Shown piece by piece: positions 4,686 through 21,806 of a DNA stretch of 64,000 bases. The position numbers and the translations under genes were made by a program. Position 1 is the first letter of the stretch. Every line of letters starts with the position of its first letter. This DNA comes from Candidatus Borkfalkia excrementipullorum (GTDB lineage: Bacteria > Bacillota > Clostridia > Christensenellales > Borkfalkiaceae). A model generated the notes under the pieces. It was not told the origin of the DNA. It worked only from the letters and a program-made list of their open reading frames with translations, and made no database searches. The stretch lies in the NCBI GenBank assembly GCA_019115565.1, contig DXDH01000071.1, positions 27,375-91,374 of the forward strand, in the 5' to 3' direction.

Positions 4686-6902
4686 ATGAAAGCACTCAAA
4701 AAGATAAGTATCATTCTGCTGTGCGGACTGCTCCTGTGCACTGCGGCCGCCGGTTTTTACTACGTTGCGGCGACGGCGGGCGCAAAATTGGACGAAGCAA
4801 AACTCGAATGCACGGACGCCTGCATCGAAGTTTACGACGCAAAGGACAATAAAATTTCCGATTTATCCTTTAAGAGCGCCAACAAAAGCGTGCGGTTCAG
4901 CGAATTGCCCGCACACGTTCCGCACGCCTTTGTCGCCGCCGAAGATAAAAATTTCTATTCGCACCGCGGCCTGGATTATAAAGGCATGGCGCGTGCGCTC
5001 CTGAAAAATATAAAGGCGCGCTCCTTTAAACAGGGCGCCTCCACCATCAGCCAGCAGCTCATCAAAAACACACAGCTTTCGAGCGAAAAGACGCTCGCTC
5101 GGAAATTGAAGGAAATCAAGCTCACGCGCAGTCTCGAAAGGAAATACTCGAAAGACCAAATCATGGAAATGTATTTAAATACCATCTATTTCGGGCACGC
5201 CTGCTACGGAATCGCGGGCGCATCCGATTTCTACTTTGCGAAGGGCGCGGAAAACCTGTCGGTAGCGGAAGCCGCCATGCTCGCGGCAATCATAAAGTCC
5301 CCCAACAATTACTCACCTTTCCTCGCGCCCGAAAAGTGCATGAATGCCCGCAACGCCGTGCTGAACCGAATGTTCGCCCTGGGTTATATTTCGGAAAGCG
5401 AATGCAAGCAGGCGAAAGCCGCGCCGCTGCCCGAAAAGCAGGATAACTCCATCGCATCCAAAACGTACCTTGCCGGCGTCTATGCGGAAATGGAATCCCT
5501 TCCGCTGTATTCACCGTACCGCTACCGCGGCGGCTGCAAAATTTACACGTATATGGATAGAGACATGCAGGACTACGCGGAAAACTTAAAAACGGACGCC
5601 GACCGTTCCGGAAAGAGCATCCTGGTTTGCGACAACAAGGCGCACGGCATCACGGCCTGGCACACGACCGAAGGGGAAATACGCAGACAGCCCGGCTCGG
5701 TAATCAAACCGCTCGCCGTGTACGCCCCCGCCCTGGAAGAAAATAAAATTTCGCCCTGCACACCCGTCCTGGACGAAAAAATCGATTTCGGCGGATATTC
5801 CCCCTCCAATTATAAAGACGATTACAAGGGGTACGTTTCCGCAAGACAGGCCTTGGCGGAAAGCCTGAATATTCCCGCCGTAAAAATACTCAATTCTCTG
5901 GGCATTGAAAAGAGCGAACGGTATCTGCTCCAAATGCAGCTCTTCCTTTCCCCGGAAGATAAAACGCTTTCCCTTGCGTTGGGCGGCTTGAGCGAAGGTT
6001 TTACCCCGCGCGAAATCGCGGCCGCCTATACGGTATTTCCCAACGGCGGACAGTATTCTCCCCTCGCCTTTATACGGAAAATTGAAGACTCTGCGGGGAA
6101 CACCCTCTACGAGCGCAAAATTACCAGTCAAAAAGTATTTTCGGAAGACACGGCGGCTCTCATAAACGATATGCTGGCGAACGCCGCAAAAACGGGAACC
6201 GCAAAAAAACTTGCAACCTTGCCCTTCCCGGTGTGCGCCAAGACGGGAACCAGCGGAACGGAGGAAGGCAACACCGACGCGTGGGCGGTGTCCTATACCC
6301 CCGAACACACGATAACCGTTTGGATGGGCAACGCCGACAATTCACTCACCGATATAACGGGCGGCGGCTTGCCCTGCCACTACGCTCTCCTTTTAAACAA
6401 AAGGCTATACCGAAGCGCTCGCCCGGCCGAATTCCAATCCTCGCCAAAAGTCGTGGAATGCCTTTTGGATAAAATCTCCTACGAGCGAGACCACACCGTC
6501 AAACTCGCCGCGTCAAGCGCGCCCGAACAATACATCCTGCACGAACAATTCCGCGAATGCAACCAACCGAAGGAGTACGGAAGTACTTTCGGCGAGCCTA
6601 CGGCAAATGCGGCGATTTATTATAAAAATTCGAGGGTTTATATCGAATTATGCCAGACAGAATACTATGATTATTTAATTAAACGGGCGGAAAACGGAAA
6701 AACCACCGCACTGTTTGACGGCCACTGCGACGGAAATTATTGCGACGACAATGTTTTGCCGAACAAGAAATACACCTACTCGGTAACCCCTTACTTCGTC
6801 GGGAGCGACGGAGAAAAGCATTTCGGCAAAGAAATGTTCCTGCCCTCCGTCTACACCAAAAAGGAAGCAGCCAAACCGCCCAAAAATTGGTGGGCTTCGT
6901 AA
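4686..6902 (+). CDS. Class A penicillin-binding protein (transglycosylase/transpeptidase) with C-terminal FN3-like region
   Basis: N-terminal TM anchor; GT51 motifs EDKNFYSHRG, QGASTISQQLIKN, YLNTIYFG; TP motifs SVIK, SLN, KTG; ATG at 4686. Confidence 0.92.
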   Translation: MKALKKISIILLCGLLLCTAAAGFYYVAATAGAKLDEAKLECTDACIEVYDAKDNKISDLSFKSANKSVRFSELPAHVPHAFVAAEDKNFYSHRGLDYKGMARALLKNIKARSFKQGASTISQQLIKNTQLSSEKTLARKLKEIKLTRSLERKYSKDQIMEMYLNTIYFGHACYGIAGASDFYFAKGAENLSVAEAAMLAAIIKSPNNYSPFLAPEKCMNARNAVLNRMFALGYISESECKQAKAAPLPEKQDNSIASKTYLAGVYAEMESLPLYSPYRYRGGCKIYTYMDRDMQDYAENLKTDADRSGKSILVCDNKAHGITAWHTTEGEIRRQPGSVIKPLAVYAPALEENKISPCTPVLDEKIDFGGYSPSNYKDDYKGYVSARQALAESLNIPAVKILNSLGIEKSERYLLQMQLFLSPEDKTLSLALGGLSEGFTPREIAAAYTVFPNGGQYSPLAFIRKIEDSAGNTLYERKITSQKVFSEDTAALINDMLANAAKTGTAKKLATLPFPVCAKTGTSGTEEGNTDAWAVSYTPEHTITVWMGNADNSLTDITGGGLPCHYALLLNKRLYRSARPAEFQSSPKVVECLLDKISYERDHTVKLAASSAPEQYILHEQFRECNQPKEYGSTFGEPTANAAIYYKNSRVYIELCQTEYYDYLIKRAENGKTTALFDGHCDGNYCDDNVLPNKKYTYSVTPYFVGSDGEKHFGKEMFLPSVYTKKEAAKPPKNWWAS

Positions 6903-6964: not shown

Positions 6965-8119
6965 TCATATGCGCAGCGTTTCCAATGTTTCGAACGCTTC
7001 CTCTATCAATTTTTCGACGTCCAACCGCGCCTCCGCACGGAGAACATCTTCCATTTTGGGGCGAATCAGCGGATGCTTCGGCAGAAATACCGTGCAGCAA
7101 TCCTCATACGGCAAAATCGACGTTTCAAAGGTACCAATCTCGCGCGCCCGCTCAATAATTTCCGTTTTATCGAATCCGACGAGCGGACGCAGAATCGGCA
7201 GCTTTTTTACAACCGAACCGGAAGAAGTCATCCCCTCGATTGTTTGGCTGGCAACCTGCCCCAAACTCTCTCCCGTGACGATACATTGCCCGCCGACACG
7301 CTCAGCAAGGCGCTCCGCTATGCGCATCATAAAGCGCCGCAACAGCGTAATCATCATTTCCTCCGGGCAATTTTTATGAATCGCCTCCTGAATGTGCGTT
7401 ACGCTGACGACGTGCAAATTCATACCGCCCGTATAGCCGCTCAAAATATGCGCCAATTGCTCCACCTTTTCGCGCGCCTGCATATTCGTATACGGATAGC
7501 TATGAAAATGCAGTCCGTCCAAAACCATGCCGCGCTTGGCAATCATATGCCCGGCAACAGGGCTGTCGATTCCGCCCGAAAGGAGCAATATCCCCTTGCC
7601 GGATGTTCCGACGGGCATGCCTCCCGCACCTTTGATGTGCCTGCTGAATACGAGCGCGTCCCCGTTCTCCCGAATGTCGATGCAAATTTCATGCTGCGGC
7701 GCATGAACGTCGACCTTTAAATTCGGATTATCCTGCAAGAGCCGGCCACCGATTTCGGAGTTTACCTCCATGGAATGGAGCGGAAAACTTTTGGCGGCTC
7801 GGTTCGTTATTACTTTGAAGGTTCCGCCGGCGGGCGCAATCAATTTCACCGTTTCGTAAATCGTCTCGATATCCGCCGGGACTTTATACGCCGCACTCAA
7901 AGTGTGTGTACCGAAAACTTTGGATAATTTCTCCAAAATCTCGTCTGTGCGTTCCTGGTCAAAATTCTCAACGATATAGCGGCCGCTCGGTTTGCGAATT
8001 TCATGGCGAATCCCCGTCAGCGCTCTTTCCAGGTTCGTCATAAAAACCTTTTCGAAATATCCCCGGTTCTTCCCTTTTAAATGTATTTCACAATACCGTA
8101 CGATAATTACTTTTTCCAT
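6965..8119 (-). CDS. thiI: tRNA 4-thiouridine(8) synthase ThiI
   Basis: EIHLKGKNR, THUMP domain, PP-loop LLSGGIDSPVA, TGESLGQVASQT, PYEDCC. Confidence 0.96.
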   Translation of the reverse strand: MEKVIIVRYCEIHLKGKNRGYFEKVFMTNLERALTGIRHEIRKPSGRYIVENFDQERTDEILEKLSKVFGTHTLSAAYKVPADIETIYETVKLIAPAGGTFKVITNRAAKSFPLHSMEVNSEIGGRLLQDNPNLKVDVHAPQHEICIDIRENGDALVFSRHIKGAGGMPVGTSGKGILLLSGGIDSPVAGHMIAKRGMVLDGLHFHSYPYTNMQAREKVEQLAHILSGYTGGMNLHVVSVTHIQEAIHKNCPEEMMITLLRRFMMRIAERLAERVGGQCIVTGESLGQVASQTIEGMTSSGSVVKKLPILRPLVGFDKTEIIERAREIGTFETSILPYEDCCTVFLPKHPLIRPKMEDVLRAEARLDVEKLIEEAFETLETLRI

Positions 8120-8123
8120 CGGT

Positions 8124-9245
8124 TCACCTCATTCTCTCCGCAAGCTGGCCCGCGCATCGGTTCATTATCTCAACGGCTTGCACCGCTTCATCCATTGTCG
8201 TTTTAGCGGAAAACGAAATCCGCAATACGCCGTCCGCCGCTTTTTCGCTCAACCCGCACGCCAACATAACGCGGCTGTAGCGGTTTTTCGACGAGCACGC
8301 GGAACCGGTTCCCACGACGATGCCCTCGTCGTTCAGCATGTGCAGCAACACTTCGCCGCGCAGCCCCTGCGCCGATACGCTCAAGATATACGGAGACGCC
8401 TGCGGCGAAGATAAAATTGTAAATATGTCCGGTTGCAGATTTTCTCGAAAATAGCGATTGATTTCCGCAATTTTGCGAAAATCCTCCTCTAAGGACGAAA
8501 ATTTCTTTTCCGCGGCAAATTCAAACTGCTTAATCGCAAACATATTTTCGGTGCCGCTCCGCAGCCCCTTTTCCTGCCCGCCCCCGCAAACGAGCGGACG
8601 AATGTGCAGATTTTTCTTGAAAAACAGAGCGGCGGCACCGCGTACACCGCCGATTTTATGCGCGCTGACGGAGTACAAATCCATCTCCCGGTTCAGTTTA
8701 AACGGCACCTTGCCGAAAGCCTGCACCCCGTCGCTGTGAAAGAGATTTTTATTATTTTTCAATTTGACTTGTTTGGCAATTTCGCCGACAGGGTTGACGG
8801 CGCCCGTCTCGTTATTGACGTGAATAACCGAAACAAGCGATGTGTTTTTATCGATTAAGGAAAGCAAATTTTCGAGATTGACACTGCCGTCGGCATTGAG
8901 CTTCGCAAAGCGAACGTCGGTACCGCGGCGAATAAGCTCTTTGGCACTATTGAACACAGCCGCGTGTTCCCCTTCCGTCGTAACGATATTTCCGCGCGAC
9001 ACGCTGCAAAACAGAGCCTGGTTATCCGCTTCGCTTCCGGACGCGGTAAAAATGAGGTCGAAATCGGCAGCCGAAGCTATATGAGCCAGAATATTTTTCC
9101 TTGCCTCTTCCAACTCTTTATGCGCCGCAAACCCCTCCCGATAGAGCGCGGAGGGGTTGAAAAAATCATCCTGTAAAAAATGCATAGCCTTTTCCACTGC
9201 GTCCCCTTCCGGGCGCGTGGTGGCGGCATTATCCAAATAAATCAT
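8124..9245 (-). CDS. iscS: Cysteine desulfurase (IscS/NifZ-like partner of ThiI)
   Basis: MIYLDNAATT, VNNETG, SAHK PLP lysine, GSACSS catalytic Cys; adjacent to thiI. Confidence 0.9.
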   Translation of the reverse strand: MIYLDNAATTRPEGDAVEKAMHFLQDDFFNPSALYREGFAAHKELEEARKNILAHIASAADFDLIFTASGSEADNQALFCSVSRGNIVTTEGEHAAVFNSAKELIRRGTDVRFAKLNADGSVNLENLLSLIDKNTSLVSVIHVNNETGAVNPVGEIAKQVKLKNNKNLFHSDGVQAFGKVPFKLNREMDLYSVSAHKIGGVRGAAALFFKKNLHIRPLVCGGGQEKGLRSGTENMFAIKQFEFAAEKKFSSLEEDFRKIAEINRYFRENLQPDIFTILSSPQASPYILSVSAQGLRGEVLLHMLNDEGIVVGTGSACSSKNRYSRVMLACGLSEKAADGVLRISFSAKTTMDEAVQAVEIMNRCAGQLAERMR

Positions 9246-9829
9246 CGTCTGTTAAATTCCGATTCCAAAATATTCCTGCGGGTATAACGCAAAATCGTAG
9301 AAAGCAATTGCGGGCGGCATTCAAGTACCAAAATCCGTTTTCCGACATTCGTTGCCGCCTGGATATAGAAGAACTCTCTGTCCTCTTCTGCTTCGCTGTT
9401 CGGAGTCAGGATATCTTCCTTGGTATCGGGCGAGGCTTTCAGCTTTTTATATGTTTCGGAGTCGACGCGGCCAATCAAGATCAATTTATCGTCGGACAAG
9501 CGGTAAAGCAATTTGCGCTTTCTATTATGCAAAACTTTGCAAATCCGCAATTCTCCCGAAACAAACGTATAATCGTAACTCAGATAAAAAGAGTGCCTTT
9601 TTATAAAGAGAAATACTGCGCAGACGACCATCGCCACAAACATTATTCCCCATATGATAAAGGACGGAATATACTGTGCCTCCGCCGGAATTCCCATCAT
9701 CAGAGTAAAAAAGGAAATTACAGCAAAGACAATACACAAAACAGCTGTAACCGTAAATAAGGTATAGCGCCGTTTCGCCGGTTTTTCGTCGTGCAACGCG
9801 ACACTCTCTTCATAAAAGATTTCCTGCAT
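9242..9829 (-). CDS. Hypothetical membrane protein (2 N-terminal TM helices plus a soluble domain)
   Basis: 195-aa ORF; stop overlaps the iscS start (ATGA); two hydrophobic segments. Confidence 0.75.
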   Translation of the reverse strand: MQEIFYEESVALHDEKPAKRRYTLFTVTAVLCIVFAVISFFTLMMGIPAEAQYIPSFIIWGIMFVAMVVCAVFLFIKRHSFYLSYDYTFVSGELRICKVLHNRKRKLLYRLSDDKLILIGRVDSETYKKLKASPDTKEDILTPNSEAEEDREFFYIQAATNVGKRILVLECRPQLLSTILRYTRRNILESEFNRR

Positions 9830-9844
9830 ATCTGGCTCCGTGGT

Positions 9845-12800
9845 TTAATATTCTATCGCGCCTTCGAATACCTGCTTGACGCTGCCGGTAAGGCGCACCG
9901 TGCCGTCGGAGGAGTAGCGGACAATCAAATCGCCGCCGCGCACTTTGACGGTTATATCCTCGTCTTGTTTGCAATATCCGTTGAGAACTGCCGCAATCAC
10001 GCTGGCAGCTGCACCCGTACCGCAGGCGAGCGTTTCACCGTTGCCGCGCTCCCAAACGCGCATTTTCAGCGTTTTGTCGTTGACGACGCGCACAAATTCC
10101 GCATTGATTCGCTGCGGGAAATACTCCGCATACTCAAACAAAGGGCCGACATTCGCCACATCGACGGCATCGACTTTGTCGCAGAACACTACACAGTGCG
10201 GGTTGCCGACGTTGACGAGCGTAACCGCATAATCCTGCCCGCCGATAGAAATATTTCTCCCGACGACGGTATCACCTTCCAAAGTAGACGGAATAGATTT
10301 TCCGTCCAAAACGGCTTTGCCCATATCGACACTGACCGAGCTGACTTTGCCGTTGAAAGTATACAGCTGCAATTCCTTGACGCCGCTGAGCGTTTCGATG
10401 GTAATTTTGTTATTCTTTACAATTCCGTTATCAAACAAATATTTTGCGACGCAGCGAATCGAGTTGCCTGCCATCGCGCCCTCGCTGCCGTCCTTGTTGA
10501 AGATGCGCATCTTCGCGTCCGCCACGTCCGATTTTTCGATGAGCGTGATGCCGTCGCCGCCGATGCCGTAATGCCTGTCGACAAAGTTGATTGCGAGTGA
10601 TTCGGGGCAGGTTATCTTTCCGTCCATATTGTCAAAGAAGATATAGTCGTTGCCGCAGCTCTGCATCTTGATAAAGTTCAGCTTCAGCTTGTCGGTGCGC
10701 AGATGATTGATGTCGACGAGCTCGGTATTGCTCTCGTTGAAGCGGCTCGCGATGATGTCGGCGAGAGCGTTCGCCGTATCCAGGCTGGTGAGCGTCGTGA
10801 TGCCGAGCAATATCGCGTGATGGTACATGCGGATATAGTCGTTGATGGAATCCATATCCGTCTTGCCGGTGTAAACGATATAATCGATTTTTCCCTCGTC
10901 CATCAAATGGAAAATCTCGTCGCTCTGCGAGAGCCTGTCCACCGTCGTAACTTCCACGCCGAGGGTGCGGATGGTATCCGCCGTGCCCTTCGTCGCATAG
11001 ATATTCAGGCCGAGGTCGCTGAACTTTTTGGCAAGCCCTAAAATCTCAAATTTATCCTGGTCGTTGATGGTGAAATAGACGCCGACCTGGCGCTGTTTGG
11101 TGGGATGGCACAGCTTAAAGCCCGCCGAAACCAACCCCTTAAAAAGAGCTTCCTCGATGGTCTTGCCGATGCCGAGCACCTCGCCCGTCGATTTCATCTC
11201 CGGCCCGAGCTGGGAATTTACGTCGTTGAGTTTTTCAAAGGAAAATACCGGCACTTTGACGGCGACATACGGCGAGGTTTTATACAATCCTGTGCCATAG
11301 CCTAGCTTTTTCAGTTTCGCCCCGACCATGATTTTTGTCGCGAGCTCCACCATCGGCACGCCCGTCACTTTGGAGATGTACGGAATCGTGCGCGAAGCGC
11401 GGGGGTTAACTTCAATGACATACAACTCGTTATGGAAAACGAGGAACTGGATATTGATAAGCCCCTTCGTCTTGAGCGAAAGCGCAAGCTGCGTGGAGCA
11501 CTCGATTATTTTATCCAGCATGATGTCGCTCAGGTTGTACGGCGGATATACGGCGATGGAGTCGCCGCTGTGCACGCCCGCGCGCTCGATGTGCTGCATT
11601 ATTCCGGGGATGAGCACGTCCTTTCCGTCGCTGATGACGTCCACTTCCAGCTCCTGCCCCATCAGATACTTGTCGCAAAGCACGGGGTTTTCAATGTGCT
11701 GGGCGAGAATCACGTCCATATAGCGGGAAATATCATTCTCCGTAAACGCGATGGTCATGTTCTGCCCGCCGATGACGTAGGACGGGCGCAAAAGCACCGG
11801 GTAGCCGAGTTTGTCGGCTGCCGCCAGCGCCTCCTCTTTTGTCATGACCGTGAGCCCCTTCGGGCGGCTGATGCCGAAGCGCTCGAGCAGTTCGTCGAAG
11901 CGTTCCCTGTCCTCCGCCATGTCGACGCTGTCCGCCGAGGTGCCGAGGATACGGATTCCCTTCTTATCCAGGTAGTTGCACAGCTTGATTGCCGTTTGTC
12001 CGCCGAAGGTGATGACAACGCCGTACGGTTTTTCCTTGTCGATGACGTTCTGCACGTCCTCAGGGGTAAGCGGCTCAAAGTACAGCCTGTCCGCCGTGTC
12101 GAAATCGGTGGAAACCGTTTCCGGGTTGTTGTTGATGATGATAACTTCGTAGCCGAGTTTTTTCAGCGTCCAGACGCAGTGCACGGAGGAATAGTCGAAC
12201 TCGATGCCCTGCCCGATGCGAATCGGCCCCGAACCGATGACGATGATGCGCTTCTTCGTGCTCTCCGCAATGAACGGAGTTGCCTCGTCGTGCGAATACT
12301 CGTCGTAAGTCGAGTAGAAGTACGGCGTTTCCGCCGCAAATTCCGCCGCGCAGGTATCGACCATTTTATAGACGGCCTTTCTGTGGTACGGAATTTTCTG
12401 CCCCGAAAGATTTTCAAGTTCGTGGTCGGGGTACCCGAGGCGCTTGCCCTCGTCGTACAGCGCGCGCGTCAGCTTTTCGCTCTGCAAACGGCGCTCGTAC
12501 TTGACCAAATTGTTGAGCTTGGAGAGGAACCATCGGTCGATTTTCGTGATTTCAAAAATCTCGTCTACGGATATCCCCGCTTTCAAGGCGGCGAAGACCG
12601 TGAACAGCCGCTCGTCGGAAAGTTTTTTTAATTCTTCCCGCAAATCCACCCCTTCATACTTGTTGAGGTTGAGGGAGGAAAGGGAAATTTCCGCGCCGCG
12701 CACCGCCTTCATAATCGCCATTTCAAAGGAGGTGCCGATGGACATCACTTCGCCCGTCGCCTTCATGCGGGTGCCGAGTTCGCGCTTCGCATACAGGAAT

Positions 12801-13891
12801 TTATCGAACGGCCATTTTGGCAATTTTACGACAACATAGTCGAGCGCAGGCTCGAAGCAGGCGTACGTCTTGCCCGTGACGTCGTTCTTGATTTCGTCGA
12901 GGGTATAGCCGAGCGCAATTTTCGTTGCGACCTTCGCAATGGGATAGCCCGTCGCCTTGGAAGCGAGCGCCGAAGATCGCGAAACGCGGGGGTTGACCTC
13001 GATGACGGAATACTCAAAAGAGTTGGGATTGAGCGCAAATTGACAGTTGCACCCCCCTTCAATCTGCAATTCGGAGATGATGTCCAAAGACGCCGTGCGG
13101 AGCATCTGGTACTCTTTATCGGAGAGAGTGACCGCGGGCGCAATAACGATGGAATCGCCCGTATGGATACCGACGGGGTCGAAGTTTTCCATGGAGCAGA
13201 CGGTCAGAACATTTCCCGCACCGTCGCGCAAAACTTCGAACTCAATCTCTTTCCACCCGTAAATATATTTCTCAACCAACACCTGCGTGATGGGCGAGAG
13301 CATCAGGCCGTTGTGCGAGATGGTGCGCAGCTCCTCTTCGTTGTACGCCACGCCGCCGCCGGCGCCGCCGAGCGTAAATGCGGGGCGGATGATGACGGGA
13401 TACCCGATTTTATTCGCCACCGCGACGCACTCTTCCACGGTATACGCGATATCGGAGGGAACGACCGGCTGCCCAATCTTCTGCATCGTCTCCTTGAAGA
13501 GTTCCCGGTCTTCCGCGCGGTCGATTGCGTCCACCTTCGTGCCGATGAGTTTGACGCCCCATTTATCGAGGAATCCTTCCTTTGCGAGTTTGCAGCCGAT
13601 AGTCAGCCCCGTCTGTCCGCCGAGGGAAGCGAGAAGGCTGTCCGGCCGCTCTTTAATGATGATGCGCTTGATAGAGTCGATGGTGAGCGGCTCGAGATAA
13701 ATTTCATCCGCGAGCGCCTCGTCCGTCATGATGGTCGCAGGGTTGGAGTTGCACAATACGACGTTCACGCCCGCATCCTTCAAAACGCGGCACGCCTGCG
13801 CGCCCGCATAGTCGAACTCCGCGGCCTGTCCAATCACAATCGGGCCGGAGCCGATTACGAGAACCTTTTTTATATCGCTCCTTTTAGGCAT
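9845..13891 (-). CDS. carB: Carbamoyl-phosphate synthase large subunit fused to a C-terminal diaminopimelate-epimerase-like (DapF-fold) domain
   Basis: Starts MPKRSDIKKVLVIGSGPIVIGQAAEFDY; two ATP-grasp halves and an MGS domain; continues in frame into KMQSCGNDY...RHYGIGGDG...NVGNPHCV...ERGNGETLACGTGA. Confidence 0.95.
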   Translation of the reverse strand: MPKRSDIKKVLVIGSGPIVIGQAAEFDYAGAQACRVLKDAGVNVVLCNSNPATIMTDEALADEIYLEPLTIDSIKRIIIKERPDSLLASLGGQTGLTIGCKLAKEGFLDKWGVKLIGTKVDAIDRAEDRELFKETMQKIGQPVVPSDIAYTVEECVAVANKIGYPVIIRPAFTLGGAGGGVAYNEEELRTISHNGLMLSPITQVLVEKYIYGWKEIEFEVLRDGAGNVLTVCSMENFDPVGIHTGDSIVIAPAVTLSDKEYQMLRTASLDIISELQIEGGCNCQFALNPNSFEYSVIEVNPRVSRSSALASKATGYPIAKVATKIALGYTLDEIKNDVTGKTYACFEPALDYVVVKLPKWPFDKFLYAKRELGTRMKATGEVMSIGTSFEMAIMKAVRGAEISLSSLNLNKYEGVDLREELKKLSDERLFTVFAALKAGISVDEIFEITKIDRWFLSKLNNLVKYERRLQSEKLTRALYDEGKRLGYPDHELENLSGQKIPYHRKAVYKMVDTCAAEFAAETPYFYSTYDEYSHDEATPFIAESTKKRIIVIGSGPIRIGQGIEFDYSSVHCVWTLKKLGYEVIIINNNPETVSTDFDTADRLYFEPLTPEDVQNVIDKEKPYGVVITFGGQTAIKLCNYLDKKGIRILGTSADSVDMAEDRERFDELLERFGISRPKGLTVMTKEEALAAADKLGYPVLLRPSYVIGGQNMTIAFTENDISRYMDVILAQHIENPVLCDKYLMGQELEVDVISDGKDVLIPGIMQHIERAGVHSGDSIAVYPPYNLSDIMLDKIIECSTQLALSLKTKGLINIQFLVFHNELYVIEVNPRASRTIPYISKVTGVPMVELATKIMVGAKLKKLGYGTGLYKTSPYVAVKVPVFSFEKLNDVNSQLGPEMKSTGEVLGIGKTIEEALFKGLVSAGFKLCHPTKQRQVGVYFTINDQDKFEILGLAKKFSDLGLNIYATKGTADTIRTLGVEVTTVDRLSQSDEIFHLMDEGKIDYIVYTGKTDMDSINDYIRMYHHAILLGITTLTSLDTANALADIIASRFNESNTELVDINHLRTDKLKLNFIKMQSCGNDYIFFDNMDGKITCPESLAINFVDRHYGIGGDGITLIEKSDVADAKMRIFNKDGSEGAMAGNSIRCVAKYLFDNGIVKNNKITIETLSGVKELQLYTFNGKVSSVSVDMGKAVLDGKSIPSTLEGDTVVGRNISIGGQDYAVTLVNVGNPHCVVFCDKVDAVDVANVGPLFEYAEYFPQRINAEFVRVVNDKTLKMRVWERGNGETLACGTGAAASVIAAVLNGYCKQDEDITVKVRGGDLIVRYSSDGTVRLTGSVKQVFEGAIEY

Positions 13892-14963
13892 TGCGCTTTC
13901 CTCCTTTGTCCATGTTGGCAATAAAACGGTCGAAGAGATACGAGGCATCCAAAGGCCCCGAGCATGCTTCCGGGTGGAACTGCACGGTGAACGCGTTCAT
14001 ATCGCCGTAATCGACGCCCTCGCAGGTATTGTCGTTCGCGTTGACAAAGCTGATTTTGCCGACCGACTGCACCGACTCGTTGATGACCTCGTAGCCGTGG
14101 TTCTGGCTGGAGATGTACACCCTGCCCGTCTCCAGATTTTTGACGGGCTGGTTGGTGCCGCGGTGGCCGTACTTCATCTTTTTGGTTTTGCCGCCCATCG
14201 CAAGCGCGAACAGCTGGTGCCCCAGGCAGATGCCGAATACAGGCAGCCTGCCCGCCAGCTTTTTGATGTTTTCGATGATTCCGACGTTTTCGGCAGGGTC
14301 GCCCGGGCCGTTGGTGAGCATCAACCCGTCCGGCTTTAAGGCAAGAATCTGTTCCGCAGTATACGAAGCGGGCACGCGCACGACCTTGCAGCCGCGCTTG
14401 ACGAGCTCGCGCACGATATTCTCCTTTGCTCCGAAGTCCCACAGCGCTACCGTGCGTTTATTGCCATCGCCGTAGACGGCGGGTTCGGCGCAGGTCACGC
14501 TTTCCACCGCGTTGCGGATGGCGTACTTTTTAATTTCATTGATATCATTCACGGGGCGCGTAGAGATTACGGCGTTCATTACGCCCGTCTCGCGGACAAT
14601 GCGCGTCAGTTGGCGCGTATCGACGCCGTACACGCCGACGATTCCCTGCGCCTTTAAATAATCGTCTAACTTGCCTTCACAGCGGAAATTGGACGGCTCT
14701 TCGCAATATTCCCGCACAACATACGCGGAAAGGAACGGCTTGCGGCTCTCCGCATCGGCGGGAATCATGCCGTAGTTGCCAATCAGCGGAAATGTCTGAA
14801 TTACGATTTGCCCGTAATAGCTCGGGTCGGTCAGTGTTTCGATATAGCCGGTCATGCCCGTCGTGAAGACGAGTTCGCCCACCACATCGCCGCGCGCGCC
14901 GAAGCGCTTGCCTTCAAATACCTGTCCGTTTTGCAGCGTTAAATAAACTTTTTCTTCCTTCAT
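13884..14963 (-). CDS. carA: Carbamoyl-phosphate synthase small subunit
   Basis: GELVFTTGMTGY, NGPGDP, GICLGHQ catalytic Cys, QFHPE. Confidence 0.97.
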   Translation of the reverse strand: MKEEKVYLTLQNGQVFEGKRFGARGDVVGELVFTTGMTGYIETLTDPSYYGQIVIQTFPLIGNYGMIPADAESRKPFLSAYVVREYCEEPSNFRCEGKLDDYLKAQGIVGVYGVDTRQLTRIVRETGVMNAVISTRPVNDINEIKKYAIRNAVESVTCAEPAVYGDGNKRTVALWDFGAKENIVRELVKRGCKVVRVPASYTAEQILALKPDGLMLTNGPGDPAENVGIIENIKKLAGRLPVFGICLGHQLFALAMGGKTKKMKYGHRGTNQPVKNLETGRVYISSQNHGYEVINESVQSVGKISFVNANDNTCEGVDYGDMNAFTVQFHPEACSGPLDASYLFDRFIANMDKGGKRNA

Positions 14964-15005: not shown

Positions 15006-15908
15006 TTATTTGAGCAATTTGCAGAGCACCGCTTTCTGCGCGTGCAGCCTGTTTTCCGCTTCGTCGAAAATTTCGTCGGCATGCGCCTCGAAAACCTCGT
15101 CGGTAATCTCTTCGCCGCGGTGCGCGGGCAGGCAGTGCAGCACCATCGCATCCGGTTTCGCGACGGAAAGCAACTCTTTATCGACGCAATAATTCCGGAA
15201 CACCTTTTCGCGCTCCGCCTTTTCGCTCTCCTGCCCCATCGACGCCCACACGTCAGTATAGAGCACGTCGGCGCCCTCCGCCGCTCTTTTCAAATCGGAG
15301 GTGACGGTAAACTTGCCGTTTTCGGCCGCCCACTTCATGATTTCCGCATCGGGGCGGTAAGTATCGGGGCAGGCAATCGCAACTTCCATGCCCGTCTTGA
15401 TGCCGCCGACGATGAGGGAGTTCGCCATGTTATTCCCGTCGCCGACAAAGCACAGTTTCAGCCCCTTCAGGCTGCCTTTATACTCGCGGATTGTCATTAA
15501 ATCGGCGAGCACCTGGCAGGGATGGCAATAATCGGTGAGCCCGTTGATAATGGGAATGGAGCCGTATTTCGCCAAATCCTCCACGTCCTGCTGCGCGAAT
15601 GTGCGAATCATAATTGCGTCGAGATAGCGCGAAAGCACCCGCACAGTATCCTTAATCGGCTCGCCGCGCCCAAGCTGAATGTCGCGGTCGGACAAAAACA
15701 GCGCGGTGCCGCCGAGCTCGGTCATACCGACTTCAAAGCTGACGCGCGTACGCGTGGAAGACTTCGTAAAAATCATGCCCAATTTTTTGCCCGCGAGGTG
15801 CGGATGCGGAATGCCGTTCTTTCTCTCGTATTTCAGCTGGTCGGCAAGATTCAGAATACCGAAAATCTCTTCGGCGGAAAGGTCTGCAAGTTTCAGTAAA
15901 TGCTTCAT
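15006..15908 (-). CDS. argF: Ornithine carbamoyltransferase
   Basis: SSTRTRVSFE, HPCQ, SMG, HCLPAHRG. Confidence 0.97.
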   Translation of the reverse strand: MKHLLKLADLSAEEIFGILNLADQLKYERKNGIPHPHLAGKKLGMIFTKSSTRTRVSFEVGMTELGGTALFLSDRDIQLGRGEPIKDTVRVLSRYLDAIMIRTFAQQDVEDLAKYGSIPIINGLTDYCHPCQVLADLMTIREYKGSLKGLKLCFVGDGNNMANSLIVGGIKTGMEVAIACPDTYRPDAEIMKWAAENGKFTVTSDLKRAAEGADVLYTDVWASMGQESEKAEREKVFRNYCVDKELLSVAKPDAMVLHCLPAHRGEEITDEVFEAHADEIFDEAENRLHAQKAVLCKLLK

Positions 15909-17071
15909 TCGGAAATCACCTCGTTCAAAATTCTCAGCCCAAAATCAATCTCGTCCTTTTTAATCGTGAGCGGCGGAAGCAGGCGAACCCTGTCCTTCGC
16001 CGTCAAAACAATCAATCCTCTTTCGAGGCACGCCTCGGAAACGGCGCGCGCCTTTTTCGTCGTCAAGAGGCCAATCATCAGCCCCATGCCCGTCACTTCG
16101 GTTACGTTTTTAATTCGGCCGAGGTGCGTAAACATGTATGCGCTCTTGCCCTGCACTTCAAGCAGCAAATTTTTATCGATGCGCGAAAGAATGCTGCAGG
16201 CACCCGCGCAGGCGACGGGATTGCCGCCGAAAGTCGAGCCGTGGTCGCCCGCGGCAAAAACCTTTTCCGTCTTTTCAAAGAACATCGTCGCCCCGAGCGG
16301 CAATCCGCCCGCAAGCCCCTTCGCCGTCGACACGATGTCGGGGGAAATGCCGAACTGTTCGTAAGCGTACAGCGTTCCCGTGCGGCCGTTGCCCGTCTGA
16401 ACCTCGTCAATTATCAATAAAATGTCGTTTTTCTTGCAGAATTTTTCGATTTTCTGCACCTCTTCAACGGGAAGCGGGCGCACGCCGCCCTCCCCCTGCA
16501 TGAGTTCGAGCATAACGGCGCAGGTCGCCTTTGTGCATTTTGCACGCACACTCTCGAACGTCGGCTCGGCGTAATCAAAGCCGTCCAGCATCGGCGCGAA
16601 ACTGCGGTGCATCGCTTCCTGCCCCGTCGCGGACAGAGTCGCCATCGTCCTGCCGTGGAAGGAATTTTTCAGCGTAACGATGCGGAAGCGTCCCTCGCCG
16701 TATTTATCGAAGGAATACTTGCGAGCCGCCTTGATGGCACACTCGTTCGCCTCCGCGCCCGAGTTGGAAAAGAATACCTTTTTGGCGCCCGTGCGGGAGC
16801 AGAGCATCTCCGCGAGCTCTGCCTGCGGGCGTGTGTAATATAAGTTGCTCGCGTGCTGTACTTTATTCAGCTGCGCGATGACGGCGTTTTTCCACTCCTC
16901 GTCGTTCACCCCGAAGGAATTGACCGCGATGCCGCTGCCGAAATCGACATACTTTTTTCCCGATTCCGACCAAAGCGTCGCCCCTTCGCCGCGGCAAAGG
17001 TCGGTCGGAAACCGGCTGTAAGTGTTCGCAATGTACTGTTGGTCTTTCTGCTTTATCTCTTCAAAGCTCAT
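15905..17071 (-). CDS. argD: Acetylornithine aminotransferase (class III PLP)
   Basis: NSGAEANE, SFHGRT, DEVQTG, AKGLAGG, HGSTFGGNP; arg-cluster context. Confidence 0.93.
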   Translation of the reverse strand: MSFEEIKQKDQQYIANTYSRFPTDLCRGEGATLWSESGKKYVDFGSGIAVNSFGVNDEEWKNAVIAQLNKVQHASNLYYTRPQAELAEMLCSRTGAKKVFFSNSGAEANECAIKAARKYSFDKYGEGRFRIVTLKNSFHGRTMATLSATGQEAMHRSFAPMLDGFDYAEPTFESVRAKCTKATCAVMLELMQGEGGVRPLPVEEVQKIEKFCKKNDILLIIDEVQTGNGRTGTLYAYEQFGISPDIVSTAKGLAGGLPLGATMFFEKTEKVFAAGDHGSTFGGNPVACAGACSILSRIDKNLLLEVQGKSAYMFTHLGRIKNVTEVTGMGLMIGLLTTKKARAVSEACLERGLIVLTAKDRVRLLPPLTIKKDEIDFGLRILNEVISE

Positions 17072-17089
17072 AATGCACCTATTTTATCT

Positions 17090-17118
17090 ATTCTATCACA
17101 AATCGCCGGGGAAAGCAA
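17090..17118 (-). promoter_or_regulatory. Internal sigma-A promoter upstream of argD
   Basis: Minus strand TTGCTT-17 bp-TAGAAT with extended -10 (TGa) in the 128-bp argB-argD gap. Confidence 0.6.
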
Positions 17119-17199
17119 TTGTTTCCCCCTCCATTTTGCGCACGCTTTTGCGGAAGTTTTTCCCGCCGCAAAAACTCATAAAAAGAGACCGATTAAAAA

Positions 17200-18072
17200 T
17201 CAGTCTCCGTTCACAAACATGGTGCCGATACCTTGGTCGGACAATGTTTCGACGAGGATGGAATGTTCCACCCTTCCGTCAATTATAAATACTTTTTTAA
17301 CGCCGCGGCGAATCGCCTCGCGGCAGCAATCGATTTTCGGAATCATGCCGCCCGAGATGATTCCCTGTTTGACGAGCGAAGGAATATCGCTCACGTAAAT
17401 TTTTTCGATGAGGCTGGATTCGTCGTCCTTGTTGCGAAGAACCCCCTTCGTATCGGTCATGAGAATGAGGCTGGTCGCCCCGAGCGCCCCTGCAATCACT
17501 GCGGAAGCGGTGTCGGCGTTGACGTTATAGATATGCCCCTCGTTGTCATACCCGACGGTAGAAACAACGGGGATATATCCGGCGTCGAGCGCGTCGGTAA
17601 TGACCTTGGTGTTCATATCGGTAATTTTTCCGACATAGCCGAGCCGCTCGTCCGCCTTGCAGCACTTCATCATGTGCCCGTCGATGCCGCACAGCCCGAG
17701 CGCCTTGCCACCGATGCTCTCCAAAAGGTTGACCAGCGATTTATTGATTTTGCCCGCCAGCACCATGCGCACGATTTCCGCCGTCTCCTCGTCCGTGTAC
17801 CGAAGCCCGTCGACAAAGACGGATTCTTTGCCGACCTTTTTGAGCATTTCGGAAATTTCCGGCCCGCCCCCGTGCACCAACACGACTTTGACGCCGATTA
17901 AATTGAGAAGAACGATGTCCCGCATGACGGACATCTTCAACTGCTCGTTAATCATAGCGTTTCCGCCGTATTTGACGACGATAATCTTTCCGTTATAGTC
18001 CTGAATATACGGCAGCGCCTCGATGAGCACCTGCGCGCGGAATTTTTTGTCGTTGATTTGGTTGATATCCAT
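17200..18072 (-). CDS. argB: Acetylglutamate kinase
   Basis: VVKYGGNAM, VHGGGPEI, GLRYTD, NVNADT, GGMIPK. Confidence 0.97.
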   Translation of the reverse strand: MDINQINDKKFRAQVLIEALPYIQDYNGKIIVVKYGGNAMINEQLKMSVMRDIVLLNLIGVKVVLVHGGGPEISEMLKKVGKESVFVDGLRYTDEETAEIVRMVLAGKINKSLVNLLESIGGKALGLCGIDGHMMKCCKADERLGYVGKITDMNTKVITDALDAGYIPVVSTVGYDNEGHIYNVNADTASAVIAGALGATSLILMTDTKGVLRNKDDESSLIEKIYVSDIPSLVKQGIISGGMIPKIDCCREAIRRGVKKVFIIDGRVEHSILVETLSDQGIGTMFVNGD

Positions 18073-18125
18073 ATTATATTGCCGCCTTTCGTTCGCTTCA
18101 AATTCAATAATAAAACCGTCTGATT

Positions 18126-19337
18126 TCAGGTGCGGTAATCGCCGTTAATCTTTACATAATCGTAGGTCAAATCGCAGCCCCACGCCGTCGCCCTGCCGCC
18201 GCGGTCGTTCATGTTGATGAGTATTTCGATTTCGTCACAGGAGAGAATTTTTTTCGCCTCTTCCTCCGAGAACGGTATGCCGCTTCCGCCGCGGCACACG
18301 GCGAGCGTGCCCGCTTTGCTCTTAAAATCCACGTCGATTTTCGTTATATCCGCATCCGCGCCCGCATAGCCGATTGCACAGAGCACCCGTCCCCAGTTTG
18401 CATCCGCGCCGAACATCGCCGCTTTGAACAGGGAAGACTTGATAATTGATTTTGCAATGAGCTTCGCCGCGCTCTTGCTCTTAGCCCCGCTCACCTTACA
18501 TTCGAGGAGCTTCGTCGCGCCCTCGCCGTCTTTGGCGATGCGGCGGCAAAGGTTTGTCGTAACCTTGTTCAAAGCCTTGCGGAAAATCAAATAATCCTTT
18601 CCGTTTTCCTCGATACAGTCGTTGCCCGCCAAACCGTTTGCGAGCACGCAGACCATGTCATTCGTCGAGGTATCCCCGTCGACGCTGACCATATTGAAGG
18701 AATCCTTTACATCGGCGGAGAGCGCCTTTTGCAGCATCGCCGGCGAGATGGAAACGTCTGTCGTAATAAAGATGAGCATGGTCGCCATGTTCGGGTTAAT
18801 CATACCGACGCCCTTGCCAATCGCCCCGATTTTGCACTCCTTTCCGCCGAGCGTAAAGGTATAGGCGATTTGCTTATCGACCGTGTCCGTGGTCATGATG
18901 CCCTGCGCCGCAAACAGGCTGTTATCGCCCAGCCCTTTGACGAGTTCGTCCATGCCGGCCGCAATCGGTTCCAGCGAGAGGGGCTGGCCAATCACGCCCG
19001 TCGACGCGACGACGACATCCTCCGCGGGGATACCCGTCTTATCGGAAACGAGGCCGCACATGCCCTCCGCGATTTCCTCACCGTTTGCGTTGCAGGTGTT
19101 GGCATTGCCGCTGTTGCAGACAATCGCCTGCGCATAGCCGTCCGCCACGTGCCGCTTTGTCACGGTGATGGGCGCGCCCTTCACAAGATTCTGCGTATAT
19201 ACGCACGCCGCCGAACAGCGCACGTCACTCACGATGAGCGCCAAATCTCTCTTTGTCTTATTTTTGCGGATACCGCAATGCACGCCGTTCGCTTTAAACC
19301 CCTCGGGCGCGCACACACCGCCTTCAATCTTTTTCAT
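18126..19337 (-). CDS. argJ: Ornithine acetyltransferase / N-acetylglutamate synthase ArgJ
   Basis: NSGNANTC, STGVIG, IMTTDT, GMINPNMATML autoprocessing site, DGDTSTND, WGCDLTYDYVKING. Confidence 0.97.
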   Translation of the reverse strand: MKKIEGGVCAPEGFKANGVHCGIRKNKTKRDLALIVSDVRCSAACVYTQNLVKGAPITVTKRHVADGYAQAIVCNSGNANTCNANGEEIAEGMCGLVSDKTGIPAEDVVVASTGVIGQPLSLEPIAAGMDELVKGLGDNSLFAAQGIMTTDTVDKQIAYTFTLGGKECKIGAIGKGVGMINPNMATMLIFITTDVSISPAMLQKALSADVKDSFNMVSVDGDTSTNDMVCVLANGLAGNDCIEENGKDYLIFRKALNKVTTNLCRRIAKDGEGATKLLECKVSGAKSKSAAKLIAKSIIKSSLFKAAMFGADANWGRVLCAIGYAGADADITKIDVDFKSKAGTLAVCRGGSGIPFSEEEAKKILSCDEIEILINMNDRGGRATAWGCDLTYDYVKINGDYRT

Positions 19338-19423
19338 AACCAAACCTCAATTCAAAACTTCCAATCCAAGCAATTCAGCCGAAGTAAATCCGCTCGCGCT
19401 TTCCGCCTTTCCCGTTTCCTCGC

Positions 19424-20350
19424 TTATAAAAGCGAAGTGCGCTCGTCCAAACCGAGCATTATATTCATGCACTGTACGGCGGCGCCCGATGCGCCCTTGC
19501 CGAGGTTGTCGAATACGGATGCGAGCAAAATGCGCTCGTCATTTCCGCCGACATAAATTTTCATTCCGTTCGTTCCCGCAAGTTCGTTTGCAGGGAGATA
19601 GGCCGGCATTTCGTCCGCAATTTTTATAAAATTACCTGTCGCATAGTACTCTGCAAAATACGATTTTATATCATTTACAGACATTTTTTTATTTAAAAGC
19701 CTGCCGCAAATCGGAACAGTGACGCACATGCCGCTGTAATAGTCGGACACAATGGGATTGAATACGGGCTCGAATTGCAGCCCGCAGACGGCCTTCATTT
19801 CCGGGAGATGCTTGTGCATCTGCGCCGTGCCGTATTGGCGAGGGCTGTCCAGGAGCGGCGAGCGCCCCTCCGCTTCGTATTCGGCAATCATCTTCTTTCC
19901 TCCGCCGCTGTACCCCGTAACCGAATGGCACACGAACGGATACTCCGGCGAAAGAATTTTGCCGGCAACAAGAGGATACACCAGCGAGATGAAACCGCTC
20001 GCGTGGCACCCGGGCACGGCGACGCGGCGGGAAGCCGCAATCTTCTTCCGATGCTCCGCCGACAGTTCGGGGAATCCGTACGCCCACGCTTTATCCGTGC
20101 GGTGCGCCGTCGATGCATCGATGATTTTTACCCTTTCATTCTCACAGAGGGAAACCGATTCCCGCGCCGCCGCATCGGGCAGGCACAGAAAGACGATGTC
20201 CGCCGCATTGATTTTCTCTCTCCGCGCGTCGACGTCTTTGCGCAATTCCTCCGGGAGCACGCTGAAGCGTACATCCTCCCGCTTTCCGAGCCTGTCGAAT
20301 ATCTGAAGCCCTGTCGTACCCTCTTTTCCGTCGATAAATACGTTTACCAT
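19424..20350 (-). CDS. argC: N-acetyl-gamma-glutamyl-phosphate reductase (short, type 2)
   Basis: VFIDGKEGTTGL, DASTAHR, PGC catalytic Cys, DNLGKGASGAAVQ. Confidence 0.95.
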   Translation of the reverse strand: MVNVFIDGKEGTTGLQIFDRLGKREDVRFSVLPEELRKDVDARREKINAADIVFLCLPDAAARESVSLCENERVKIIDASTAHRTDKAWAYGFPELSAEHRKKIAASRRVAVPGCHASGFISLVYPLVAGKILSPEYPFVCHSVTGYSGGGKKMIAEYEAEGRSPLLDSPRQYGTAQMHKHLPEMKAVCGLQFEPVFNPIVSDYYSGMCVTVPICGRLLNKKMSVNDIKSYFAEYYATGNFIKIADEMPAYLPANELAGTNGMKIYVGGNDERILLASVFDNLGKGASGAAVQCMNIMLGLDERTSLL

Positions 20351-20367
20351 AATCCCATTATACAGAC

Positions 20368-20398
20368 GGTTTGCGGCACTCATTTTGCGCCGCAAACC
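20368..20398. other. Intergenic hairpin between argG and argC
   Basis: GGTTTGCGGC-N11-GCCGCAAACC perfect 10-bp stem with no adjacent U-tract. Confidence 0.6.
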
Positions 20399-20416
20399 AC
20401 CCTATCGTTTCAATAT

Positions 20417-21640
20417 TTATTTCAGCTTTTTGTTCTGAAGCATCGCGCGCACTTTGATGGGCAAGCCGTACAGATTGATAAATCCTTCCGCATCGTGCTG
20501 GTTATACACGTCCTCTTCGCCGAACGTAGCTATCTCCTCGCTGTACAGGGAATGTTCGCTCTTCATTCCGGCAAGAATGATATTGCCCTTGTAAACCTTC
20601 AGTTTCACCTCTCCCGTCACATTCTCCTGCGTTTTATCGACGAATGCGGAGAGCGCTTCGCGCAGAGGCGTAAACCACTGGCCGTTGTATACAAGCTCGG
20701 CAAATTTAATGCCGATGTGCTGTTTGAAATGCTGTGTATCCTTATCCAAGCAGAGCATCTCGAGGTATTCGTGCGCCGCATAGAGAATACTGCCGCCCGG
20801 CGTTTCATACACGCCGCGGCTCTTCATGCCGACGAGCCTGTTTTCAACCATGTCGACCAAACCGACGCCGTTTTCTCCGCCGATTTTGTTGAGCTGCTCG
20901 ATGAGCTCGACAGCGCCGACTTTTTTGCCGTTGAGCGCCACGGGGATACCCTTTTCAAATTGGAGCGTCAGATAGGTGGGCTTATCGGGAGCTTTTTCGG
21001 GGGACACGCCGAGCTCGAGAATCTTATCGTACTGCGGCTCGTTGGCGGGGTCTTCCAAATCCAGCCCCTCATGCGACAAATGCCACAAGTTTTTGTCCTT
21101 TGAATAGTTCGTCTCGCGCGTAATCTTCAAGGGAATATTGTGCGCTTCCGCATAGTCAATCTCCTCGTCGCGGCTCTTGATATTCCAAATCCGCCACGGG
21201 GCGATAATCGTCATTTCCGGCGCGAACGCTTTTATCGTCAATTCAAAACGAACCTGGTCATTCCCCTTGCCCGTGCAGCCGTGGCAGATAGCGTCCGCTC
21301 CTTCCTTTTTCGCAATCTCGACGATGCGCTTTGCGATAATCGGGCGCGCAAACGAAGTACCGAGCAAATACTTGTTTTCATATACAGCGCCCGCCTTCAT
21401 CGTCGGATAAATGTAATCCTCGATAAATTCTTTGCGAAGGTCTTCGATATACAGTTTGGAAGCGCCGGTCTTTAAGGCCTTTTCTTCCAAGCCCTCCAAT
21501 TCACTCTCCTGCCCGACGTCGGCAGAAACGGCGATTACCTCGCAGTTATTGTAATTTTCCTTCAGCCAGGGGATAATAATCGACGTATCCAACCCGCCCG
21601 AATAAGCCAAAACAACCTTTTTGATTTCCTTCTTTTCCAT
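20417..21640 (-). CDS. argG: Argininosuccinate synthase
   Basis: [40 protein letters not shown]. Confidence 0.98.
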
Positions 21641-21701: not shown

Positions 21702-21728
21702 GCGTTTCAAGCACATATTTTAAAAAAT

Positions 21729-21806
21729 ATGCAAATAAATTCATTCATTATTGCATAAAATTTATAAATATGCGCTTTTATGCAAGATTTTTTGCATAAA
21801 CATGTC
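21729..21806. promoter_or_regulatory. Cluster of ArgR/AhrC (ARG box) operator-like sites
   Basis: TGCAAATAAATTCA (21730-43), TGCGCTTTTATGCA (21771-84) and TGCATAAACATGTC (21793-806) resemble TGMATWWWWATKCA; upstream of argG. Confidence 0.65.

Follow-up and report, generated by a model that had tools for sequence, protein, structure and literature searches.

A carbamoyl-phosphate synthase of Clostridia carries a fused DapF-fold domain that lacks its first catalytic cysteine and may act as a regulatory amino acid binder

In a 64,000-nucleotide stretch of Candidatus Borkfalkia excrementipullorum DNA (contig DXDH01000071.1, positions 27,375 to 91,374; hereafter the window), the large subunit of carbamoyl-phosphate synthase (CPS), CarB, continues into a domain with the fold of the diaminopimelate (DAP) epimerase DapF, in which the first of the two catalytic cysteines (Cys1) is replaced by alanine. 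The data establish the fusion itself, the loss of Cys1, a retained substrate pocket, purifying selection on the domain, alternative routes to meso-DAP and the repeated loss of Cys1 among related fusions. Tentatively, and judging from sequence comparisons, we regard it as plausible that the fused domain binds meso-DAP, or an amino acid like it, without catalysis and that it tunes the synthase. The fusion is apparently a conserved, undescribed variant of known parts with a putative regulatory role. A full-text literature search returned no description of a CarB-DapF fusion, with the proviso that supplements or subscription journals could hold a mention, and the available part of PMC9026213 does not mention one. 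The source names of two protein matches give CarB only.

The fusion gene (carB::dapF, 9845..13891, minus strand) is a single open frame of 1348 amino acids at the end of an arg/car run, its start at 13891 overlapping the carA stop. Residues 1-1050 correspond to a normal CPS large subunit with two ATP-grasp halves, an oligomerisation domain and an MGS domain; the score of 1416 bits on TIGR01369 (cut-off 1027) and the adjacent carA partner place the protein within CarB. A domain search returned the CPS domains, an MGS-like allosteric domain with its core at residues 949-1032 (10796..11047, minus strand) and two DAP_epimerase repeats, the DapF domain coming after the MGS domain. The last 280 residues (1069-1348; 9848..10687, minus strand) scored 275 bits on TIGR00652 DapF (cut-off 114.65) and also matched DapF in a structure model. 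The 100 bases of the CarB/DapF junction contain neither a stop nor an AGGAGG-like site, and their sole ATG encodes the Met of a conserved F-x-K-M motif. Within the domain, the first catalytic motif reads E-G-A-M-A-G-N-S, with Ala73 (codon GCA, 10469..10471, minus strand) at the Cys1 position, and the second catalytic cysteine (Cys2) is retained as Cys222 (codon TGC, 10022..10024, minus strand). Asn216 (10040..10042, minus strand) lies within E-R-G-N-G. Both ERGNGETLACGTG and the G-N-P-H motif (10196..10207, minus strand) are intact, the latter including an Asn that binds the distal carboxylate (PMC5296763). The first-pass annotation of this DNA had described CarB as reading straight into a complete DapF-like domain of about 280 residues with an intact second motif and G-N-P-H, and all of this was borne out. 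Its account of the first motif was right about the local reading, G-A-M-A-G-N-S with GCA, but took E-M-C-G-N-G as the intact form, which in this lineage is K-M-C-G-N-A/G.

Both the fusion and the Cys-to-Ala change in the source genome are real. A contig from an independent public run (X5) covers 9700-10649 with six differences, none of them at 10469-10471, and two further contigs from such runs (X10 and X15) cover 10642-10841 and 10642-10855 without a difference; no indels were listed in the three contigs over the locus. Contigs from RNA libraries also cover the fusion, a coverage that does not demonstrate transcription. A DapF match was present in all 24 genus relatives searched, and all 22 genus loci, the source genome included, have Ala at Cys1, encoded by four codons (GCG 17, GCA 2, GCC 2, GCT 1), and TGC at Cys2; the stand-alone DapF copies of the genus have both cysteines in 20/20 cases. 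The caveat raised at first pass, that the change might be private to one assembly or a sequencing error and that homologous fusions might keep both cysteines, therefore fails on its first part, but about half of the homologous fusions (63/135) do keep both.

We next consider catalysis. The cell probably does not rely on the fused domain as its epimerase, because the C83A variant of Corynebacterium glutamicum DapF, which is equivalent to the loss of Cys1, is almost inactive (PMC5296763). Meso-DAP can be made in other ways in the source genome: contig C72 carries a stand-alone dapF, 53% identical to the fused domain and bearing K-M-C-G-N-A plus the second cysteine, with pyrG and dapL after it and a gltB-like and an ANTAR-like gene (labels from translations) before it. 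Both ddh and lysA are also present, and a single carB copy was found. The proposed check for a stand-alone dapF or ddh thus returned a two-cysteine dapF beside dapL as well as ddh.

Our sample of the wider family comprised 70 fusions from 71 order-level genomes (among the matches listed, with 134 weaker matches left out) and 63 from 65 class-level genomes. The tree of 135 fusions, like all trees in this analysis, was built with FastTree; it excluded the motif columns, those pattern matches that lacked a genome handle, and also six rows of the genus and one short locus. On this tree the Cys1 state needs nine changes, eight of them forced by supported branches. Cys1 is absent in 72 of the 135 fusions, the site becoming A, G or S, and intact in 63, whereas Cys2 is retained in 68/72 and 60/63, respectively. 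A second dapF or ddh was found in 70/72 genomes with a Cys1-less fusion compared to 42/63 with an intact one. Conversely, 21 of the 23 genomes in which no second dapF or ddh was found keep both cysteines, all 21 with dapL; of the 22 fusions that are a genome's sole DapF alongside dapL, 21 have both cysteines. The fusions of those 21 genomes are, by sequence, likely true bifunctional enzymes and working epimerases. Together with the C83A result and the intact stand-alone dapF and ddh of the source genome, the 70/72 count gives good support to the first-pass view that the fused domain is not a working epimerase; on these grounds, the domain very probably lacks epimerase activity.

Position 216 is N or I in 63/72 Cys1-less versus 2/63 intact fusions. 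One two-cysteine fusion with Asn216 (L350, G506:C29) is directly followed by a second stand-alone dapF, 59% identical to it, and G386 likewise combines Asn216, both cysteines and a second dapF elsewhere in the genome. Cys2 alone was lost in just three genomes, all with decayed pockets (G271, G070 and G128; loci L215, L261 and L265): Cys1 is kept, several pocket residues are gone, ddh is present and dapL gave no match. Cys1 loss coincides with a stand-alone dapF in 33/37 versus 5/33 genomes at order level and, more weakly, in 15/33 versus 6/30 at class level. We dropped the order-level link as evidence, as its Fisher p is inflated by kinship and the link is weaker at class level.

The substrate pocket has outlived the catalytic pair. 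DAP-binding residues are known for C. glutamicum and Anabaena DapF (PMC5296763, PMC12039745), and N13, N64, N75, N162, N195, E213, R214 and T224 of the former list are all present in the source-genome domain. Among 131 Cys1-less domains, N64, N75, N162, H164, N195, E213, R214, C222 and T224 were each retained in 123-131; position 13 is D in 27/131 compared to 0/76 Cys-intact domains. A structure model of the domain matched closed DapF (9mro) at 1.5 Å root-mean-square deviation and with a template-modelling score, TM(target), of 0.93, and deviated from most open DapF forms by 2.7-3.5 Å; a Cys-intact control was also nearest to the closed form (2.0 Å), and the closed-like shape of the fused domain is a prediction only. 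The domain thus resembles DapF (TIGR00652, PF01678; PDB 2otn, 9mro, 1bwz, 5m47) in fold, substrate-binding residues, second cysteine and the aromatic residue of the dimer strand, but differs in having Ala at Cys1, Asn216, CarB in front and an intact paralogue elsewhere in the genome.

Selection on the domain is purifying. Median nonsynonymous divergence (dN) within the genus was 0.110 for the fused domain, 0.245 for stand-alone DapF and 0.047 for CarB, and the fused domain was below stand-alone DapF in 136/136 genus pairs, which are not independent and include one genome pair that looks mixed. The ratio of dN to synonymous divergence was 0.09-0.24 in 14 of the 15 closest genus pairs, the remaining pair having identical domains. 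Relative to CarB, the domain evolved 1.4-3.7 times as fast in five Cys1-less genera and 1.6-5.0 times in nine Cys-intact genera. The exception is genus g18, with a ratio of 6.8 and changes of the N195Y/R214K type. Its loci (L164, L175, L208-L211, L213, L262) carry G74A, an altered N195 in 8/8 (Y in 6) and R214K or E213D/G, which points to decay or, alternatively, to a new ligand that has no distal carboxylate. A lost catalytic residue, a retained pocket and purifying selection are the sequence marks of a pseudo-enzyme, and the idea of an allosteric module would fit the latter two.

How widespread is this architecture? A DNA pattern for the Ala motif, which did not require the fusion, gave at least 120 matches; among the matches listed, 80/80 with long flanks and 35/40 with short ones were in frame with a CarB MGS domain, and record titles named Clostridia (Oscillibacter, Dysosmobacter, Ca. 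Gallimonas and others), Treponema, Selenomonadaceae and Solobacterium. The best 120 of 7509 matching proteins all lack Cys1 and all keep Cys2, while the remaining matches may include non-fusions. In an even class-level sample, a match across the junction occurred in 70 of 399 scored genomes, of which one carries an in-frame stop, leaving 69/399. Among spirochaete (Treponema-type) Ala fusions (L038, L045, L050, L059, L064, L081, L103), gapped alignments suggest insertions in the DapF domain, and the three included in the tree cluster with the Ala clade of Clostridia, which suggests transfer.

The fusion is old and of single origin. In a thinned set, 87 fused CarBs formed one clade (support 99) against 21 unfused CarBs, and the sister of all fused CarBs was the unfused carB of genome G516. 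There, purF, carA and carB are followed by TAA, directly by the in-frame ATG of a two-cysteine dapF and then by a dapL-like gene (L356, G516:C73, about 5240-5360), an arrangement that likely shows how the genes stood before they fused. Two-cysteine fusions have purF, pyrG, glnA, ANTAR, nadE or class I aminotransferase genes nearby in 27/33 loci and arg genes in 0/33, and stand-alone dapF has that nitrogen-cluster setting in 35/43 cases; of 96 Cys1-less loci, 34 have arg neighbours, six the nitrogen cluster and 56 neither (mostly with a short flank). We infer that the fusion arose by stop loss between neighbours and that both cysteines are ancestral: neighbouring carB and dapF genes in a glutamine/nitrogen cluster would have fused into a two-cysteine bifunctional enzyme, and Cys1 would then have been lost in genomes whose meso-DAP came from a second dapF or from ddh, one such clade, that of the source, now standing in arginine operons. 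The two-cysteine fusions of other Clostridia (for instance G045, G174, G061 and G571) share the architecture and single origin of the source protein but have both cysteines, a canonical MGS motif and the purF/pyrG/glnA/ANTAR-type rather than the arg setting. In three further genomes (G764:C39, G818:C21, G804:C46), a more distant CarB (38-41% identity) in a frame of 1331-1377 residues is followed by a stop and then by DapF-like sequence; this may be a CarA-CarB fusion that has a separate dapF as its neighbour.

The textbook picture of CPS regulation is one of effector binding at the MGS domain, by uridine and inosine monophosphate (UMP, IMP), ornithine and N-acetylglutamate. In the E. coli enzyme, the sites for UMP, IMP and ornithine lie in the C-terminal domain, where S948, T977, K993 and T1042 matter (PMC6245113). 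In Cys-intact fusions the equivalents of R950, K954, G976 and K993 occur in 33/33, whereas in the main Ala clade of 113 sequences the nucleotide-effector motif is partly remodelled: these four are found in 10, 45, 78 and 25, and new residues appear as Y1007 in 89/113, G1009 in 94/113 and, at a position beyond 1017 and hence mapped by motif analogy, Y/F1019 in 101/113. None of the fusions read has Glu at the position of E892, which presumably takes part in ornithine binding. The source protein keeps T941, K947, T970 and T1035 and has R986. It is like CarB (TIGR01369; E. coli 1bxr, 1jdb, 1ce8) in its ATP-grasp halves, oligomerisation and MGS domains, adjacent carA and T977/T1042 equivalents (the latter mapped by motif analogy), and by alignment departs from the E. 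coli protein in K993 to R, N1015 to Y, T1017 to G and 280 extra C-terminal residues.

A single CPS probably serves arginine as well as pyrimidine synthesis in this family, because the fused carB is the only one found in 17/17 family genomes and relatives have pyrB (5/5 tested). In the source assembly (G000), which is 87.6% complete, pyrB was not found and pyrF is present; we dropped the idea of a CPS serving arginine alone given this incompleteness, the pyrF gene and the pyrB of the relatives. A second ornithine-carbamoyltransferase-like gene (G000:C47:14240-15130, L298) lies outside the arg operon. Regarding the physical link between the domains, an AlphaFold model of residues 548-1348 (80 alignment rows) reached a mean local confidence (pLDDT) of 87.3 and a predicted template-modelling score (pTM) of 0.84, compared to an inferred ceiling of about 0.65 for an unplaced domain, and this suggests that the domain takes a defined position. 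A complex prediction for the C-terminal half of CarB and the DapF domain scored 0.01 (mark 0.32); its controls did not fold, and it weighs on neither side.

On the proposed mechanism, the ligand of the domain would be an amino acid whose distal end resembles that of DAP, meso-DAP being the simplest case. Where a Cys1-less fusion is backed up by ddh alone, dapL (two models) and dapH stayed below cut-off in 19/19 genomes; these genomes span eight families, and 17 of them keep all 12 pocket positions, the other two differing by N13D alone. Because the pocket is intact in these 19 genomes, in which no enzyme for L,L-DAP was found, meso-DAP is the candidate for a common ligand, and every one of them is, judging from the routes found, able to make it. 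We set L,L-DAP aside as a general ligand in view of the same genomes, searched for dapL and dapH but not with a dedicated model for succinyl-type dapD. In Anabaena DapF, L,L-aziDAP labels the first cysteine and D,L-aziDAP the second (PMC12039745). Loss of Cys1 should accordingly leave the L-centre untouched and the D-centre only able to exchange, with no turnover either way. The distal site could also take the L head of lysine, ornithine, citrulline or arginine, and a bare amine would be well matched by N13D. Ligand binding makes DapF close (PMC12039745), and such closure would pass via the short linker to the allosteric domain and might raise or lower CPS activity. In a bolder form, which we consider doubtful, removal of Cys1 on at least eight occasions would have made a dead-enzyme sensor across gut Clostridia and some Treponema, through which meso-DAP would govern how much carbamoyl phosphate goes to arginine and pyrimidines and, in this clade, partly replace the nucleotide site.

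Precedents exist for parts of this scheme. Human CPS1 has an amino-acid effector, N-acetylglutamate, on its C-terminal domain (PMC4655335), although this binds the MGS-like domain itself rather than an added one. E. coli DapF moonlights as an allosteric partner of RppH (PMC6061791), but in that case the partner is a free and active DapF rather than a fused, one-cysteine form.

Several observations weigh against a meso-DAP-binding regulator. A conserved pocket can also stem from folding constraints, and we know of no physiological link from DAP to CPS. Although the MGS motif is remodelled in the main Ala clade, the source protein retains or conservatively substitutes the effector residues that the literature supports (S948 to T, T977, K993 to R, T1042; PMC6245113), and UMP and ornithine may still act there. 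A second Cys1-less clade with eight members and several class-level Cys1-less fusions keep the canonical MGS motif; because that clade does so, MGS change and Cys1 loss are not coupled in general. Many class-level Cys1-less fusions show no arg neighbours. The Cys-intact control model reached a pTM of 0.62 with 22 alignment rows versus 80, so that the contrast with the source protein is confounded. Backup routes are common anyway, with ddh in 53/65 class-level genomes and a backup in 42/63 genomes with Cys-intact fusions. Finally, phylogenetically independent pair tests, resting on 8-9 pairs, reached significance in no case and gave 2.0 same to 0.1 opposite for Cys1 loss and a backup route (p 0.5), 3.6 to 1.7 for stand-alone dapF (p 0.69) and 4.1 to 0.2 for position 216 (p 0.125).

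Among the alternatives, the one that survives best, though we rate it as unlikely, is a structural add-on that dimerises CarB via the C-terminal strand of DapF or covers a CarB surface that has come to depend on it, the pocket being kept for folding without any signal. DapF does dimerise via its last strand (PMC5296763), the Y268A monomer of E. coli DapF is inactive (PMC6061791), and by sequence conservation the matching F/Y-x-G is retained in 129/131 Cys1-less domains; E. coli CPS in turn dimerises through its regulatory domains (PMC6245113), and genus g18 retains the domain despite its changed pocket. However, nearly every other Cys1-less lineage, the 19 ddh-only genomes among them, retains the polar residues of the pocket, and where pocket decay is seen (g18; G070, G271, G128) it is quick, which argues that these residues are not needed merely to keep the domain.

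Less probable again is a one-thiol enzyme, in which Cys222 would take an alpha proton for elimination or exchange, possibly on a ureido or carbamoylated amino acid. The high retention of Cys2 in Cys1-less fusions speaks for it, as do a Cys-to-Thr change that turns hydroxyproline epimerase into a dehydratase, the ability of DapF to eliminate unnatural substrates (PMC8142540) and the existence of a DapF-fold O-ureidoserine racemase (7vdy). Yet site 1 becomes A, G or S and brings no new catalytic group, the distal pocket is of the DAP type and no partner gene of a new pathway recurs beside the fusions; the first-pass suggestion of a one-base enzyme acting on a carbamoylated substrate accordingly found no specific support.

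A neutral relic of an old bifunctional enzyme, slowly decaying as another gene makes meso-DAP, seems to us more improbable still. It would account for the near confinement of Cys1 loss to genomes with a backup and for the decay in g18, and one apparent tail loss was seen: in a genome of 1.1 Mb, a close CarB orthologue (70%; G712:C1:163977-164699) of 1069 residues has stops beyond the MGS domain. Neutrality fits the constraint data poorly, however, with dN below that of working DapF in every genus pair, Ala fixed across four codons and the Ala motif widespread over Clostridia and Treponema records. Moreover, although a single stop would remove the tail, 51/53 family genomes with a close orthologue span the CarB/DapF junction, the other two being the tail loss and a case apparently cut by a contig end.

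That the domain still epimerises DAP at a useful rate via another acid/base group is very improbable: its TIGR00652 score is well over the cut-off and two Cys1-less genomes (G288, G319) have no complete second dapF or ddh found, but G288 has a dapF piece at a contig end, G319 is 91% complete, an extra Cys of the N-terminal motif also occurs in Cys-intact fusions, and both the C83A result and the two cysteines of fusions serving as sole DapF beside dapL stand against it.

If the regulatory binder proposed here is real, a fused pseudo-enzyme sensor would be a new route of CPS control and would tie arginine and pyrimidine synthesis to the supply of lysine and cell-wall precursors in a group of anaerobes that is common, as the class-level frequency of the fusion indicates. 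The family also offers a natural series for the origin of a pseudo-enzyme, from unfused neighbours via two-cysteine and one-cysteine fusions to decayed domains. In addition, because the fused domain passes the DapF model, ddh-only genomes would be falsely credited with an epimerase in profile-based reconstructions.

Upstream of the fusion on the same minus strand lie carA (CPS small subunit, 13884..14963) and, further upstream, the run 15006..21640 with argG (20417-21640), argC, argJ, argB, argD and argF (15006-15908). Three weak ARG-box-like matches (21719..21785) lie upstream of argG; the window total of four is at chance level (mean 3.6), three of the four being these. Downstream of the fusion, again on the minus strand, follow a 195-residue membrane-like protein without a Pfam or NCBIfam match (9242-9829), a NifS-like desulfurase (8124-9245) and thiI (6965-8119); a NifS-like gene was found beside 23 Cys1-less fusions. 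On the plus strand, an open reading frame of 641 residues (23402-25327), without an NCBIfam match at 1e-40, has a long acidic Pro/Gln-rich middle, a hydrophobic C-terminus and a PadR-like N-terminus.

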